Assembly: GCA_963810935.1 (NCBI GenBank)
Contig: CAWEPK010000007.1
Coordinates: 1 to 64,000 of the forward strand
DNA: 64,000 nt
Source of the DNA: an uncultured delta proteobacterium
GTDB taxonomy: Bacteria > Desulfobacterota > Syntrophorhabdia > Syntrophorhabdales > WCHB1-27
Reading direction: 5' to 3'
Positions within the stretch are counted from its first letter, which is position 1; the number at the start of each line of letters is the position of its first letter. This document shows, one piece after another, positions 14,696 through 19,059 of the stretch. Under the pieces are notes generated by a model. That model was not told the DNA's origin and did not search any database. It saw only the letters and a program-made list of their open reading frames with translations. The position numbers were made by a program, and so were the translations under genes.

Positions 14696-15742
14696 ATGGT
14701 TAAATGTCTTTTTAAAATACTCTCCTTTATTATTGCCGTTCTTGGGGGACTCTTAATGTTTGTGGCCGGGATATCCCCCACAGAATTAAATCACAATGTT
14801 AATGCATGGGTAACTAAACATCATATCCCGCTACCAGAAGTAATAAAAAGCGCAGATGCAGACGTGTGGGTATATCGGATAGGTTTAGTATTGCTGTGTT
14901 CTGGGGTTCTTTGTTTGTTGTTGATATTAATAGCGGGGATAGTCAAACAACGTAAACAGAAAAAGAGAAGGAAAGCACCGGGACCTGACCTTATTAGTTA
15001 TTACGACTTTCTAATTCTTTATGATGTGAATGATGCAAAGGACTGGTGGCCGTTTTTTGAAGTGAAGAAGGACGGGGTCTGGACAAAGGAACCCACAGAA
15101 GACGAGCAGATCTGGTTAACCCTTGAGAAAAGAAAAGAACTGTTCGATCACCCGAATCCGGTTTTGCGGTTTCCTTGTACTAAAGAGGAATTCGAGAAGT
15201 TTACCGAAGAATTTATGCCAGAAGACATGATTTGTACTATGAGGAAGAAACAAAAATCCGAAGAGAGGTTGCTTTATCATGAGAAACTAAACGTGGCTGT
15301 TTGGGGAAAGGATACGATTTTAAATATTGATTCTTCTTCCAAGGACCGCCCCACAGAATTTAAATGGCGCAGCATTACAGTTCTAACGGGGTACATAGAA
15401 AACAACGAGTTTTACGTTACCACCACTTTGTATGGTGATGAGAATGCTCCGGAAGTGCCAGTGGTAAATAATCGTAATACGATCAGTGCTTTGCCGTGGG
15501 ATATGAATTTTGACGATACAGCACTTGAACATGTTGATAGCGATCTGAACCCTCGACTCCAACTCATTTATAAGAATAATCATAGCACCGTTGTAATCAA
15601 TGGATTGTTCAGTGTGCCAAACGGCATTCTTCTGGTGAGAGAAATGATGGAGACAATGGTTTTTGGCAATTTTTTTGGCAACTGGCTTAAGCGGCTGTTT
15701 AAATACCCGTCTCGGCGGTTTCCCGGCCAAGAGGAAGATTAA
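14696..15742 (+). CDS. Hypothetical AT-rich membrane protein
   Basis: 348-aa ORF with two N-terminal TM helices, visibly AT-richer than the host. TTGACA-16-TAGAAT ends 6 nt before the ATG (possibly leaderless). Confidence 0.65.
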   Translation: MVKCLFKILSFIIAVLGGLLMFVAGISPTELNHNVNAWVTKHHIPLPEVIKSADADVWVYRIGLVLLCSGVLCLLLILIAGIVKQRKQKKRRKAPGPDLISYYDFLILYDVNDAKDWWPFFEVKKDGVWTKEPTEDEQIWLTLEKRKELFDHPNPVLRFPCTKEEFEKFTEEFMPEDMICTMRKKQKSEERLLYHEKLNVAVWGKDTILNIDSSSKDRPTEFKWRSITVLTGYIENNEFYVTTTLYGDENAPEVPVVNNRNTISALPWDMNFDDTALEHVDSDLNPRLQLIYKNNHSTVVINGLFSVPNGILLVREMMETMVFGNFFGNWLKRLFKYPSRRFPGQEED

Positions 15743-15984
15743 TGCGCTACGATAGACCCGCGAATTACCGACCACCCGCAGTTGCAGCAATTGGCCCCCG
15801 GCCCAATTGCTGCCGTGGTCGGAGGAGCGCCTCAAGGAATTGCGATAGGCGGATGAAATGGGTGCCTTGCTGACCGGAGTCTCTATGCTATAAAAGCCCT
15901 CTTCCACAGGGGCGGATAAAAAGGCTACCCTCTTTCTCTTAAGCGATGGATGCACATCGCAAACCAAGGAAAGGGAGGTAGCCA

Positions 15985-17062
15985 ATGGAGATTCATAGGG
16001 TACAGGATTTTGTGGTTGAAGGTAAAGAGGTTTTTATCGGTTTGGAAGACTCAAAGAAGACCTGGAAGATAGCAGTTCGGTGTGACAGGATGGTGATCCA
16101 CCAGGTATCCATGGAGGCAAAGTATGTCTTGCTGAAGCAATACCTGAGAAACAGGTTCCCCGGTTGCACGGTCCATTTGATGTACGAAGCAGGCTTCAAG
16201 GGGTTCAACCTTCACGATCTTCTTGCCGAAGACGGCATCGACTGCGTGGTGATCCCTCCCCATATGGTGACGGAGCCGAAGGCAAACAAGGTTAAGACCG
16301 ATAAAAGGGATGCAAACCGTCTCGCCCGCATCCTGGAGAGCCACGATTACAGGGACCCCTGCTGTGTACCCGACAAAGAGAGGAGGGAGGACCGGCAGGT
16401 AAGCCGTACCATAATCGCCATACAGAAGGATATCATCGGTAACCGCAACCGCATCCGCAAGCTCCTCGACTTTCACGGGATCGAGGTCCCCTTTGCCGGT
16501 AAGAGCGAATGGGGGCGAAAGGAGTTCGAGGGTCTTCGGACATTACCCCTGAGCGATCCCTTAAGGGCAGACTCTGGGCTCGCTTTTGACCATACTGGAG
16601 GAACTGTGGGGCCAGCGTGCGGTCTTGAGGGACTATCTCCGGGGTCTGTGCAAGAAGGAGCGTTATAGAAAGCCCTACGAGGTCGCAAAGAGCATCCCCG
16701 GCATAGGGTGGTTCACAGCCATCCGCCTGATATTAGAGCTGGGGGAGGATCTCTCCCGTTTCGGAAGCGGGAAGAAGATCGCAGGCTTCGTGGGGTTGGG
16801 CTGCAGCGAGCATTCGACGGGCCAGACCGAACGGAAAGGTCGTATCACGGGCATGGGGTCGGGGTTCATACGGCATATCCTGGTCGAGAATGCCTGGATA
16901 GCGATCAGAAAGGACCCGGCCCTGCTGTCCAAGTTCTCACGGGTATGGCGGTCGAGCGGCAGTAAGAAGAAAGCCATAGTGGCAGTTGCCCGTACTCTTA
17001 TTGTGCGCCTTCGGGCCTGCATGCTTTCGGGCAGGCCTTATACGGTCGGAGTTATTAGATAG
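15985..17062 (+). CDS. IS110-family transposase/recombinase, with an apparent +1 indel at ~16571
   Basis: RuvC-like N-terminus (FIGLEDSK, MYEAG, KTDKRDA); C-terminal SIPGIG..., GFVGL..SEHSTG, KKAIVAVAR. Confidence 0.88.
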
Positions 17063-17340
17063 GATGAGCCTGACGGAAGAGGACCTTAACAGAACAAGGG
17101 CGTACAACGCCACGTACGCTGTATTAAAGAACGGCCCGGAGTATGTTGACGCCCGTTCCTCTTTTTTCGAAAAGCAGACACATGTGGGTTGGACCACGAA
17201 TAGCAGCTTGCAAAGAACCTCCTCTTCAAGAAAGGCTCGCGCTTCGGCCGCGGACCTGTGTAAGGTCGTCGGCCTCGCGCTCGCTATCGGATATGTACTC
17301 ACTAATAACAGAGGGAAAGTCATGGACTGACCCATAAAGA
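17063..17340 (+). ncRNA. Putative bridge/seek RNA of the IS element
   Basis: Structured non-coding region containing short matches to the reconstructed target and donor junctions (see findings). RNA ends unknown. Confidence 0.6.
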
Positions 17341-17682
17341 AAAGGGGGTAGCAAAAGCCCGCTGGAAGAATCCGTTGACTTTTATCATAGCAGGCGTACG
17401 CATGTACGTCGGAGGGCACGCGCTGAGCAGGGCGCCGCATAGCGCGACCCCGCAGCAGGCGCGAGTCCAAACCTCGCCACACCATCCGCCCTTGCTCTTT
17501 TTCCCCTCCCTCTCACCCCACCCTTGGTCCCCCCCCAACCCGACCACCCACCCCCACCCACCGATAATTGTTGACACCTTTCGCTCGATATAGGAGACTG
17601 TCTCATGCGCCCGGGCTTCGCACCCGGCATCGTGAACCGTATGAAGACCGCTGCGTTTCGACAACCCGCTATCGGAGGAAAG

Positions 17683-19059
17683 ATGAATAATATGGCCTCG
17701 TCCCAGGCCCGGCCGCGCCTTTGCGCACTGGTCCGCGCCACCGCCGTTGCTCTCGTCGTTCTATCATGGACAGGCATCGCATTCTGCGGCGAGATCCATG
17801 ACGCGGCCAGGGACGGCGATGTGGCTAAGGTGACGGCGCTTCTCGACGGCAGCCCGGCACTGGTCTCCGAAAAAGATACGAACGGCGCCACGCCCCTGCA
17901 CATGGCGGCGGAGAACGGCAAAAAGGACGTGGCTGCATTGCTTCTGGCCCGAGGGGCCAAGCCGAGCGCGATTGATAACGGCGGCGTGACGCCTTTGCAC
18001 ATGGCTGCCGCCAACGGCTACAAGGACGTAGTGCAACTCCTTCTGGCGAACAAGGCATTCGCAGGCACGATGGACCGTAACGGCGTGACCCCTTTGCACT
18101 GGGCGGCCAATGGCGGCCATACGGAAACTGCTGCGCTCCTTCTGTCGAACAGGGCGGACGCAAACGCGAAAGACAACAACGGCGTGACCCCCCTCCACGC
18201 GGCCGCAGGGAAGGGCCGCAAGGAGATGGTCGCCCTCCTTCTTGCGAATAAGGCGGACGTGAACGCGCGAGACGTCAACGGCGTCACACCTCTGCTGGCA
18301 GCCGCCTCCAACGGCCAGAAGGAGACGGCGCAGGTGCTTCTGGCGAGCGGGGCGGATGCCGGGGCTGCGAATAAGTTCGGCCAGACGCCCCTCCACGTCG
18401 CCGCCTTCGGCGGCTACAAAGACGTAGCGGAGTTGCTTATCAGCCGCCGCGCAGACATCAACGCGACGGACAACGACGGCGAGACGCCTTTGCACATGGC
18501 CGCCGAGAAAGGCCGGAAGGACGTCGCTGCGCTGCTTTTGGCAAAGGGGGCCGGCATCAACGTCAAAGAAGCGAAATACGGCCGGACGCCCCTGCACATC
18601 GCCGCGAGGAACGGCCGGAAGGAAGTTTGCGATCTGCTCCTTTCGAACAAGGCCGAGATAGCCGGCACGGATAACACGGGCGAGATGCCCCTCCACGTCG
18701 CCGCCTTCGGCGGCCACAAAGACGTAGTGGAGCTGCTTGTCGCGCGCGGCGCCGACGTCAACGCGACGGACAACGACGGCGAGACGCCTCTGCACATGGC
18801 CGCCGAGACAGGCCAGAGGGACGTCGCCGAGTGGCTCCTTGGGCATAAGGCAGATATCAACGCCAGGGACGGCGACCGCCGGACGCCCCTGCACATCGCC
18901 GCGATGAAGGGCAAAAAGAACGTCGTCGAGCTCCTGTTAACAAGTAAAGCAGAGATCAACCCCTGGGACAAGGACCACCGGACGCCGTTGTGGCTGGCGA
19001 CAATCAAGGGCTACAAGGCCCTGGCGACCTGGATGCGCGAACACGGCGGCCACGAATAG
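17683..19059 (+). CDS. Secreted ankyrin-repeat protein (~13 repeats)
   Basis: GGAGG RBS; signal peptide; repeated TPLHxAA..G...V..LL...ADxN units. Confidence 0.92.
   Translation: MNNMASSQARPRLCALVRATAVALVVLSWTGIAFCGEIHDAARDGDVAKVTALLDGSPALVSEKDTNGATPLHMAAENGKKDVAALLLARGAKPSAIDNGGVTPLHMAAANGYKDVVQLLLANKAFAGTMDRNGVTPLHWAANGGHTETAALLLSNRADANAKDNNGVTPLHAAAGKGRKEMVALLLANKADVNARDVNGVTPLLAAASNGQKETAQVLLASGADAGAANKFGQTPLHVAAFGGYKDVAELLISRRADINATDNDGETPLHMAAEKGRKDVAALLLAKGAGINVKEAKYGRTPLHIAARNGRKEVCDLLLSNKAEIAGTDNTGEMPLHVAAFGGHKDVVELLVARGADVNATDNDGETPLHMAAETGQRDVAEWLLGHKADINARDGDRRTPLHIAAMKGKKNVVELLLTSKAEINPWDKDHRTPLWLATIKGYKALATWMREHGGHE

Follow-up and report, generated by a model that had tools for sequence, protein, structure and literature searches.

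A probable two-loop guide RNA in an IS110-family insertion sequence of IS1111-like architecture from a Syntrophorhabdales genome

The window analyzed here is a stretch of 64,000 nucleotides from an uncultured member of the Syntrophorhabdales (contig CAWEPK010000007.1), and at positions 15878 to 17393 it carries one of the four copies of a 1.5-kb IS110-family element found in this genome. The four copies are 99 to 100% identical, with identical termini and differing flanks. In the window, the element lies between the two halves of an intergenic host repeat, with the following features:

15766..15877, no strand assigned: left half of the host repeat ("family 1", intergenic), containing the target, from BLAST of the genome itself
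15878..17393, + strand: insertion sequence, counted with the AG core at each junction (1516 bp, versus 1515 bp in the intact copies)
15878..15879, + strand: core AG at the left junction, seen in the sequence, in the four copies and in candidate empty sites
15880..15882, + strand: right-donor variable triplet TCT, variable among relatives in step with the right donor guide
15883..15896, + strand: left arm of the subterminal inverted repeat (CTATGCTATAAAAG), from the left end compared with the reverse complement of the right end
15900..15935, + strand: further left-end inverted-repeat blocks (15900-11 and 15924-35), paired with 17358-69 and 17341-52
15923..15983, + strand: predicted 5'-UTR hairpin, the 3' arm of which covers the transposase ribosome-binding site GGGAGG (15973-78)
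15985..17062, + strand: transposase gene, here in two ORFs (15985-16668 and 16586-17062) owing to an extra A at 16571
17375..17391, + strand: right arm of the subterminal inverted repeat (TTGACTTTTATCATAG) plus the variable base C, containing the -35 box TTGACT (17375-80)
17392..17393, + strand: core AG at the right junction, seen in the sequence, in the four copies and in candidate empty sites
17394..17500, no strand assigned: right half of the host repeat, in which the right target reads G-CGTACG, one G more than the guide-encoded site

AG bounds the element at both junctions in all four copies. Of 31 candidate unoccupied paralogous sites in the same genome, 29 have a single AG where the two flank homologies meet, and in 24 of the 31 the flank alignments overlap by exactly these two bases. 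Such a comparison of copies and empty sites had been proposed in the first-pass annotation of this DNA as a check on the AG that it had read at 15878-79 and 17392-93, and it bears out both that core and the reconstructed empty site with one AG, the unoccupied paralogues reading ..CCGG AG GCGTACG... The suspicion that AGTCT at the left junction could be a sequencing error falls away, since all four copies read AGTCT and relatives carry AG-NNN-CTATG. We therefore see what is expected of the family: a specific site, a short core present once when the site is empty and at both junctions when it is occupied, and ends without ordinary terminal inverted repeats. The inverted repeats found are subterminal. 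Aligned to the reverse-complemented right end, the left end gave 44 identical positions in 78 columns and a score of 36 (maximum 33 in 500 shuffles), the alignment beginning 3 nt inside the core on the left and 1 nt inside it on the right; the repeat block I17 is 83% complementary and I12 92%. The non-coding left end spans 107 nt upstream of the ATG at 15985 and the non-coding right end 331 nt downstream of the stop at 17062.

The transposase is intact in copies L002 (on contig 17 of this genome) and L003, where it has 358 aa. The frameshift is confined to the window copy, which has one A more at 16571 than the other three copies, and the indel noticed there in the first pass is thus present in the window sequence. 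The extra A is missing from the contigs of four out of four public DNA runs, but these contigs collapse all copies and so cannot tell whether the window copy truly has it; either a true frameshift or a fault of assembly would fit. In the first case, the window copy would need protein supplied by the two intact copies in order to move. The two ORF halves match PF01548 (E 8.7e-10) and PF02371 (E 1.1e-18) in Pfam, the domain pair of the IS110 family (N-terminal DEDD/RuvC-like and C-terminal IS116/IS110/IS902), and the protein of an intact copy matches the NCBIfam model NF033542 "IS110 family RNA-guided transposase" over its full length (173.6 bits, cut-off 140). A single-sequence phmmer search of PDB sequences with the transposase gave no match at E 0.01, and a profile built from 10 family sequences matched the PDB transposases of ISCro4 (E 6.4e-11) and IS621 (E 5.1e-9), the match to IS621 being at the profile level and in the C-terminal domain. 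The first-pass reading of the protein as an RNA-guided recombinase of the IS110/IS1111 kind agrees with all of these matches. The IS621 bridge RNA and recombinase are reportedly the subject of a paper by Hiraizumi et al. (2024).

Among 10 relatives, E21/D22, E68 and D109 show no variation and D106 almost none, and a GL.C....(S/T)G motif, with Thr-Gly in the window element, aligns with GLTPRRYESG of IS621 and ISCro4; we infer that the conserved acidic residues and the Ser/Thr-Gly motif are catalytic. The 5'-UTR hairpin is conserved in sequence in relatives and would presumably act over the ribosome-binding site. The closest plasmid-borne relative of the transposase has 37% identity. Two plasmid matches are annotated as "ISEc45 family" or carry no annotation.

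The left flank has 20 or more BLAST matches within the genome, and the last four bases of the left repeat half, CCGG (15874-77), are the left target. The 13-mer encoded by the guides described below, CCGG-AG-CGTACGT, has four exact occurrences and 27 with one mismatch, compared with none and six in the reversed genome, and most of these sites fall within one repeat family. The target matched to the guides of the window element is CCGGAGCGTACGT, and its extra-G form is CCGGAGGCGTACG. The element accounts for four insertions in this genome, with a REP-like repeat family as its landing pad. The contigs of four DNA runs over 15700-17600 contained no empty allele of the window locus. A contig with a loose end at 17392 (..GTCGGCCGG before AG-GCGTACG), considered as such an allele, was assigned to another repeat copy because its left side is unlike 15850-77.

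Downstream of the gene, the right end contains a structured region:

17075..17246, + strand: structured non-coding RNA with outer stems, a target-binding loop and a donor-binding loop (covariance model match, 112.7 bits)
17098..17154, + strand: target-binding loop and its closing stem (17098-17108 with 17145-17154; helix 1, compensatory changes in 9/16 pairs)
17183..17198, + strand: inner hairpin of the donor loop (UGUGG / CCACG; helix 5, 98.6% paired, two pairs with compensatory changes)
17238..17279, + strand: extra hairpin 3' of the donor loop, from its conservation
17311..17330, + strand: Shine-Dalgarno-like motif and two-codon mini-ORF (ATG GAC TGA, 17322-30), conserved in relatives

A regular-expression anchor search for this RNA proved too noisy, and a covariance model was used instead, which detects the RNA in 12 of the 22 genomes of the host's family. 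Applied with stricter filters to 150 further genomes sampled across the phylum, the model had no match outside the element's own genome, and an Rfam scan of 15500-17800 with E up to 1 gave no match. The folding and alignment across homologues that the first-pass annotation had called for yielded a covariation-supported scaffold with two internal loops. The scaffold comprises 33 pairs with 95.6% of cells paired (38-48% in a slid-partner control), and 16 pairs are changed on both sides, versus 6.3 +/- 1.6 in shuffles (0/500). The closing stem of the target loop pairs GGGCGTACAAC (17098-17108) with GTTGACGCCC (17145-54), and invariant G-U pairs, one of them kept in 28/28 sequences, are consistent with the sense strand only. 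The two-loop layout first described for the downstream non-coding region is found as proposed: in each loop, the 5' segment is complementary to the top strand and the 3' segment has the top-strand sequence, the two overlapping at the core. Farther downstream, the ATG-NNN-stop of the mini-ORF is retained in 23 of 27 distinct relatives and in none of 27 reversed controls.

Each loop carries two guide segments:

17112..17120, + strand: right target guide ACGTACG-CT, the reverse complement of AG-CGTACGT, from family covariation
17136..17141, + strand: left target guide CCGG-AG, identical to the left flank plus core (6/6 in all four copies)
17178..17182, + strand: right donor guide ACA-CA in the family register (31/39 variable positions match across 13 types)
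17199..17206, + strand: left donor guide AATAGC-AG, identical to the right end plus core (7-nt identity with 17387-93)

Covariation of guides with targets had been set beforehand as a test that could refute the reading, and we found it for all four segments. Across the family, 22 distinct right target guides agree with their own flanks at 6.05 of 7 positions (2.73 of 7 in mismatched pairings), 16 left target guides do so at 4.03 of 7 (2.64 of 7), and the 31 matches of the right donor guide compare with a permuted mean of 13.9, each with 0 of 20,000 permutations, figures that overstate independence because relatives share ancestry. In the left target guide, only the four core-adjacent positions covary in the family (0.73 to 0.94, versus about 0.3 farther out), and in the left donor guide the variable base before the core agrees in 14 of 14 distinct types, whether it is C, G or T. 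Agreement at the two core positions themselves is limited to 63% and 77% of the right-guide pairs. Varied guides match unrelated targets such as GAAGGAA, TACACTC, TGGATCA or ACCGGAG. A 75%-identical element present in nine copies in genome G004 has the same left guide and a changed right guide, and its flanks follow (AG-CATACT), the site corresponding to that right guide being CCGGAGCATACT. The earlier suggestion that the system is potentially reprogrammable holds to the extent of this natural variation, that is, 22 distinct right target guides on one scaffold.

Every sequence feature listed in the first pass is present, including CGTACGC at 17113-19, CCGGAG at 17136-41, AGAC at 17176-79, ATAGCAG at 17200-06 and the GTGG/CCAC hairpin. 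As guides, however, only the two left segments keep their coordinates, while the right target and right donor guides move by one to two bases, to 17112-17120 and 17178-17182. All nine positions of the right target guide match at the right junction in copy L002 (9/9). In the window copy and in copy L004, the right flank pairs with this guide only when shifted by one base (AG-G-CGTACG), and the family register at 17112-17120 thus leaves the flank of the window copy one base out of register. For the right donor, the register 17178-17182 is better in 13 of 14 guide types, the exception being the window element itself (3/5 versus 4/5). The register at 17176-79 (AGAC), which lies 2 nt upstream, was for that reason set aside for the family and kept as an alternative for the window element.

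The individual matches are short (4-9 nt) and the targets are repeats with palindromic content (CGTACG), so it could be argued that the matches are by-products, either captured target fragments or similarity to host repeats, and that the protein alone picks the site. Taken on a single sequence, such evidence would arise by chance about once in 3000: among 3000 dinucleotide shuffles of 17063-17340, a target-type match pair as long as that observed (13 nt in total) arose nine times, a donor-type pair (11 nt) 37 times, and both together once. However, captured fragments would have no reason to hold a fixed place on a conserved scaffold, nor would by-products preserve one segment inverted and the other direct with an overlap at the core, or track the flanks across 22 distinct guide variants with unrelated targets. 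We consider this explanation very improbable.

When the ends are joined, they give TTGACT-N17-TATGCT, a predicted promoter that is conserved in 16 of 16 distinct junctions and whose -10 box TATGCT (15884-89) lies within the left inverted-repeat arm; a sigma-70 promoter scan of the linear element returned no sites. The contigs of four DNA runs over 15700-17600 include no circle-junction sequence (no joints were seen, and contigs cannot show rare forms). This promoter also bears on the nature of the guide. What covaries here are DNA sequences, and this alone does not fix which nucleic acid pairs; the loop segments might act as single-stranded DNA, as in the end recognition of the IS200/IS605 type. 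Against this, the scaffold has invariant G-U pairs, is in sense orientation and lies 3' of the conserved junction promoter, NCBIfam classes the protein as an RNA-guided transposase, and RNA use by this protein family has been shown experimentally in the portions of the two 2024 reports that concern it (Durrant 2024, PMC11208160; Siddiquee 2024, PMC11187229). Recognition through single-stranded DNA thus has very little to recommend it, and we retain a guide RNA.

Considering all of this, it is very probable that the element at 15878-17393 is an IS110-family insertion sequence with an IS1111-like architecture that moves by RNA-guided site-specific recombination. Its ends, its core, its unoccupied sites, a conserved RNA scaffold and the covariation of all four guides with their DNA partners are all observed. 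By analogy with IS621, ISEc11 and related elements, the guide would act as RNA and bind the transposase, a circle would form and the junction promoter would be active. Excision would join the two ends through a single AG. At that junction, TTGACT from the right end (-35) would stand 17 bp from TATGCT from the left end (-10), forming a promoter for the transposase gene and for the non-coding region that follows it, and this region would give rise to a bridge RNA or seekRNA with two internal loops. The guides of the target loop would jointly specify the 13-bp CCGG-AG-CGTACGT in a REP-like host repeat, while ACA-CA (17178-82) and AUAGC-AG (17200-06) in the donor loop would pair with the joined ends ..ATAGC-AG-TCT... 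The DEDD/Ser-type transposase would then swap strands at the shared AG, an exchange that would leave one AG per junction. In the window copy, the ends and the RNA region are intact and the transposase gene is frameshifted.

The label "IS1111-type" given in the first pass is supported by architecture, on which alone the group placement is made: the inverted repeats are subterminal, the longer non-coding region is downstream, and the top-strand-complementary guide (17112-20) stands 5' of the segment at 17136-41. In the sections of Siddiquee 2024 (PMC11187229) that deal with these groups, the same order of segments is given for IS1111 members, and the position of the long non-coding region has exceptions in both groups, some IS110-family elements having it downstream. 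The element could then be a real one of the IS110 group proper, from a lineage with a downstream non-coding region, which would make the label wrong and leave the mechanism the same. A transposase of 358 aa, outside the 330-350 aa that those sections state for IS1111 members, would fit such a placement, as would the Cys that replaces the Pro of the IS1111 motif GL-P----S(t)G and the fact that the solved relatives matched are all IS110-group proteins, although the PDB may hold no IS1111-group structure to match. Nevertheless, the subterminal inverted repeats are present and extended, the guide order is that of IS1111, the GL....TG form of the motif is that described for IS1111 in the same sections (PMC11187229), and similarity to the transposase of the IS110-group ISEc21 reaches only E 0.001 over 45 aa. 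Membership in the IS110 group proper therefore seems unlikely to us, and we keep the IS1111-like placement.

Bridge RNA and seekRNA recombinases are under development as programmable tools for DNA insertion, excision and inversion, and mechanistic work has dealt mostly with IS621 and a few relatives. The compact scaffold described here (about 130-200 nt), with at least 22 right target guides and four variants of the donor base, is natural evidence of modular retargeting in an IS1111-type architecture, and the lineage offers a non-CT core and natural off-register insertions, the latter bearing on the rules of specificity. On a bolder and rather unlikely reading, the Syntrophorhabdales-centred lineage might form a separate branch of bridge-RNA elements, so far undescribed and following its own working rules. 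Its core would be AG (with GG, read through U-G wobble, in a distant branch), its target guides would have a minimal 4 nt on the left and 7 nt on the right, and a single-base bulge beside the core would be tolerated in nature, as in two of the four insertions in this genome. After the two loops, its right end would hold two further conserved devices, a long hairpin and a two-codon ORF with its ribosome-binding site, through which ribosome loading would be linked to how the guide RNA is produced, stabilized or released. If true, such ribosome-coupled control of the guide would be a layer not described for such elements. Our literature search found no paper pairing this Syntrophorhabdales-type lineage, made up of uncultured genomes, with "IS110", and the supplements of PMC11208160 and PMC11187229 may include relatives or an identical arrangement of loops. 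As it stands, the element adds a well-resolved case to a known class and opens no new question.

Among characterized systems, the seekRNA elements of the IS1111 group ISEc11, ISPa11, ISKpn4 and ISPst6, as presented in the pertinent sections of PMC11187229, resemble the window element in having a long non-coding region downstream, a top-strand-complementary segment 5' of the bottom-strand one, with overlap in the target, subterminal inverted repeats, a circle-junction promoter (predicted here), specific short targets, and close relatives naturally redirected by altered guide segments. In contrast to the ISEc11 type as described there, the RNA of the window element has no detectable sequence relation to curated families (Rfam), its transposase has 358 aa with Cys for the Pro of the motif, and to a short seekRNA with target matches it adds a second loop that covaries with its own ends. 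The right-end bridge RNAs of the IS1111 elements ISPa11, ISAzs32 and ISCARN28 are likewise predicted to form two loops with target, donor and core complementarity, a likeness drawn by description rather than position by position from the relevant part of Durrant 2024 (PMC11208160), which also gives bridge RNA predictions for 93.0% of the IS1111 elements in ISfinder.

With IS621, as far as the corresponding sections of Durrant 2024 (PMC11208160) describe it, the window element shares two internal loops, one for target and one for donor, in each of which the left guide pairs with the bottom strand and the right guide with the top strand, a target in REP-type repeats, and a promoter rebuilt over the joined ends (predicted here); imperfect right-donor pairing and the tolerance of an inserted target base are likewise reported for IS621. 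On the same description, the two differ in the position of the RNA (in the left end before the gene in IS621, in the right end after it here), in the guide order within each loop, which is reversed, and in the core (CT versus AG). The left target guide has 4+2 nt in the window element and 7+2 nt in IS621, and the right target guide 7+2 nt and 4 (extendable to 7), respectively, and the transposases are related only at the profile level (E 5e-9, C-terminal domain). We regard the element as a genuine bridge/seekRNA element and a clear but expected example of a system discovered in 2024.

We found four copies of the element in its own genome, 99-100% identical to one another, with identical termini and different flanks in all four.

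Features of the window copy, and junctions of all copies (L002, L003 and L004 are the other three)
15878-79: core AG, left junction
left end: 107 nt between the left AG and the transposase gene
15985-16668 and 16586-17062: transposase gene of the window copy, as overlapping ORFs
right end: 331 nt between the transposase gene and the right AG
17112-17120: right target guide in the family register, ACGTACG-CT, reverse complement of AG-CGTACGT
17136-41: left target guide, CCGG-AG
17178-82: right donor guide in the family register, favoured by 13 of 14 family types
17392-93: core AG, right junction
window copy and L004, junctions: ..CCGG AG[element]AG GCGTACG
L002, junctions: ..CCGG AG[element]AG CGTACGT
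L003, junctions: ..CCGG AG[element]AG CATACGT

Two host repeat families form the flanks of three copies, and 31 candidate unoccupied sites emerged when BLAST hits of the left flank were paired with those of the right. In 24 of these the overlap between the flank alignments is exactly two bases, and the joint bases are AG in 29 and CG in the remaining two. Single AGs at the empty-site joints mean that one AG is borne by the element and one supplied by the target, with no other duplication. The AG core read by the first-pass annotation is shown both by the copies (4/4) and by the candidate empty sites (29/31), and a sequence check found every feature it had named in its place. The host site of the window copy is a repeated intergenic element (15766-15877 and 17394-17500); a C-rich low-complexity tract of CCC/CCCA runs (17495-17560) separates this repeat from an ankyrin-repeat gene (17605-19059). 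Two host repeat families with tens of copies, one of them REP-like, supply targets. In X5, one public DNA run (a bog metagenome from a different study), the right end at 17393 is joined, among the loose ends, to CATACGTATTCT, the insertion of L003.

Fourteen alignment columns vary among the four copies. The transposase gene is uninterrupted, with 358 codons, in L002 and L003, while L004 differs from L002 by six single-base deletions and seven substitutions. The indel suspected at 16571 is indeed an extra A in the window copy, unlike the other three, and it is absent from the contigs of all four public DNA runs; since those contigs collapse the four copies into one, the frameshift may be either copy-specific or an assembly error.

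On the ORF halves, Pfam identified PF01548 (DEDD_Tnp_IS110, E 8.7e-10) and PF02371 (E 1.1e-18), and the intact protein matched NCBIfam NF033542, "IS110 family RNA-guided transposase", over its full length (173.6 bits, cut-off 140). A large protein collection contains about 1856 matches to it at E up to 1e-5; the best 120 of these are 68-100% identical and mostly without a name, one being named as an IS110 family transposase from a Syntrophorhabdales bacterium. The lone sequence had no match among PDB sequences, but a profile of 10 family sequences matched ISCro4 (E 6.4e-11) and IS621 (E 5.1e-9) in the C-terminal domain, aligning the family motif GL.C....(S/T)G to GLTPRRYESG of both. The 10-sequence alignment shows no change at the acidic residues E21/D22, E68 or D109 and almost none at D106. 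Similarity to the transposase of ISEc21, of the IS110 group, was marginal (E 0.001 over 45 residues), and among plasmid-borne relatives the best has 37% identity. Besides the four copies, the genome holds distant IS110-family transposase genes: one at C17:103356-104144 (-), with 27% identity, is some 400 bp away from L002, and a 316-318-aa type has four copies (C7:218219, C10:159345, C18:10353, C20:564). A 73%-identical transposase with complete RNA and right end (L005) sits on a 3.7-kb contig in a MAG that is labelled Nitrososphaerales archaeon, reflecting either wrong binning or a transfer.

An Rfam scan of 15500-17800 (E up to 1) gave no match. Relatives were drawn from species-representative genomes and the host's taxonomic family (transposases 42-79% identical), and the region 3' of the stop codon aligns well across them. 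Folding and aligning these homologues, a check proposed in the first-pass annotation, recovered a conserved paired scaffold: the RNAalifold prediction has 16 pairs, of which 9 show compensatory changes. A 33-pair structure drawn by hand was then put to the test; it comprises an outer stem, a closing stem and inner hairpin for the target loop, and two closing stems and an inner hairpin for the donor loop. Its cells are 95.6% paired, falling to 38-48% when partners are slid by 1-3 columns, and in 16 pairs both partners change, where shuffles give 6.3 +/- 1.6 (0/500 reach 16). Several pairs are invariant G-U, so that only the sense strand fits. A covariance model built on this structure found the RNA in 12 of 22 host-family genomes (own genome counted), in 57 instances among the collected loci, and in none of 150 other genomes sampled across the phylum with stricter filters. 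The single-sequence fold of the window RNA agrees in architecture (z -1.72 for 198 nt, -3.11 for 331 nt). Directly 3' of the donor loop there is a long hairpin (17238-17279), which most relatives keep, though with altered arms (..CGCACTTCGGCCACGGAC..GTC.TTGGCCTCGTGC..); it could be a third RNA domain or a 3'-end structure. One relative (L050/L086; genome G008, contig 308) scores just 57 bits on the RNA model because it lacks the inner part of the target loop, both the inner hairpin and the left guide; its donor loop is intact.

The guides covary with the sequences that they would recognize, all four segments passing this check across relatives. Guide segments were taken from fixed columns of the model alignment and element ends from conserved end motifs, independently of the guides, and each element's four loop segments were tabulated against the flanks and termini of that same element. 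The counts exclude L074, whose ends lie at a contig edge or are those of a neighbour; L050 and L086, a relative that has lost most of its target loop; and the left end of L019, which had a spurious anchor. The right target guide matches its own right flank at a mean of 6.05 of 7 bases, against 2.73 in mismatched pairings (22 distinct guides), and the left one scores 4.03 against 2.64 (16 distinct guides); for neither did any of 20000 permutations reach the observed sum, although the relatives' shared ancestry means that permutation figures overstate independence. Agreement along the seven right-flank bases is, in order, 0.94, 0.89, 1.0, 0.94, 0.83, 0.83 and 0.69; on the left it is 0.73-0.94 at the four core-adjacent bases and about 0.3 farther out, giving an effective target of 4 + 2 + 7 = 13 bp. 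The three variable bases of the right donor guide match the three variable post-core bases of the left end in 31 of 39 comparisons (13 distinct types; permutation mean 13.9, maximum 26, 0/20000 reaching 31). The variable pre-core base of the left donor guide equals the right-end base in 14/14 distinct types (C, G or T); one further element, L047, whose end motif falls below a later, stricter anchor threshold, has A in both. In a distant branch (L019, L020, L026, L027), GG replaces AG in both left guides and also at the junctions. Even with that shared ancestry, the relatives' targets range over unrelated words, among them GAAGGAA, TACACTC, TGGATCA, ACCGGAG and TTTGGAT. At the right junctions of L043, L070, L016 and L052 the dinucleotide is unlike the guide prediction (e.g., AA/GA against AC/AT) or the end motif is one base short; decay of the copies, resolution of a heteroduplex between unlike cores, or an assembly error could each account for this.

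Within the host genome, the flanks of L002 match both target guides perfectly (13/13) and those of L003 with one mismatch. The window copy and L004 carry an extra G 3' of the core, and their right flanks pair only at a one-base shift (7 and 8 of 9). The left target guide proposed at first, CCGGAG at 17136-41, stands, while the right one, CGTACGC at 17113-19, was a shifted reading of 17112-17120. The genome has 4 exact occurrences of the 13-mer that the guides encode, and 27 with a single mismatch (0 and 6 in a reversed-genome control), mostly within one REP-like repeat, in the 5' arm of a CGTAC..GTACG hairpin; its extra-G variant occurs 7 times. For the right donor guide the window element is the exception in its family, with 3/5 matches at 17178-82 against 4/5 at 17176-80, the register first proposed; in close relatives with an identical donor loop the left end carries TGT in place of TCT, and the match in the family register is 4/5. 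Relative genome G004 holds nine copies of an element with a 75%-identical transposase, an unchanged left target guide and a different right one (reverse complement AG-CATACTA). Six distinct right flanks of its copies have AG-CATACT and one has AG-CGTACT, with six distinct 9-base junction pairs aligned; judged by sequence, this is natural retargeting.

Aligned with each other, the left end and the reverse-complemented right end form extended imperfect inverted repeats (44 identical of 78 columns; score 36, maximum 33 in 500 shuffles) that begin 3 nt (left) and 1 nt (right) inside the core. Joining the ends through one AG would set TTGACT (17375-80) 17 bp from TATGCT (15884-89), a predicted promoter; the arrangement recurs in 16/16 distinct junctions of relatives, 14 with the 17-bp spacer. 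No sigma-70-like site was found in the linear element at the scan threshold, and no circle junction was seen in the contigs of four DNA runs. Junction promoters are documented for the IS110 family in PMC11187229 and PMC11208160. A left-end hairpin kept in relatives (15923-15983, 15923-40 paired with 15966-83) covers the transposase ribosome-binding site, which suggests translational repression. About 70 nt before the right end, a Shine-Dalgarno-like GAGGGA precedes a two-codon ORF, ATG GAC TGA (17311-17330). ATG-NNN-stop is kept there in 23/27 distinct relatives (reversed controls 0/27); the middle codon takes nine forms, the stop is TGA or TAA, and two more relatives have 3-4 codons instead.

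The finding is real: copies, RNA scaffold and guide-target covariation support the proposed IS110/IS1111 bridge element, and we infer that the RNA exists, where it starts and stops, that it binds the transposase and that movement requires it. A literature search found no paper naming both "Syntrophorhabd" and "IS110". What makes the system valuable is a natural, well-resolved set of guide variants sharing an IS1111-type scaffold, together with its AG core and natural off-register insertions. Two features count against membership in the IS1111 group as described in PMC11187229: the transposase, at 358 aa, exceeds the reported 330-350 aa, and has Cys where Pro is reported in the motif. By architecture the element would belong there, sharing with the group the right-end RNA and the guide order (PMC11187229 and PMC11208160). 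According to PMC11208160, in the IS621 bridge RNA left guides pair with the bottom strand and right guides with the top strand, each pairing including the core; the element shares this layout, but differs from IS621 in carrying its predicted RNA in the right end, with the top-strand-complementary segment 5' of the other.
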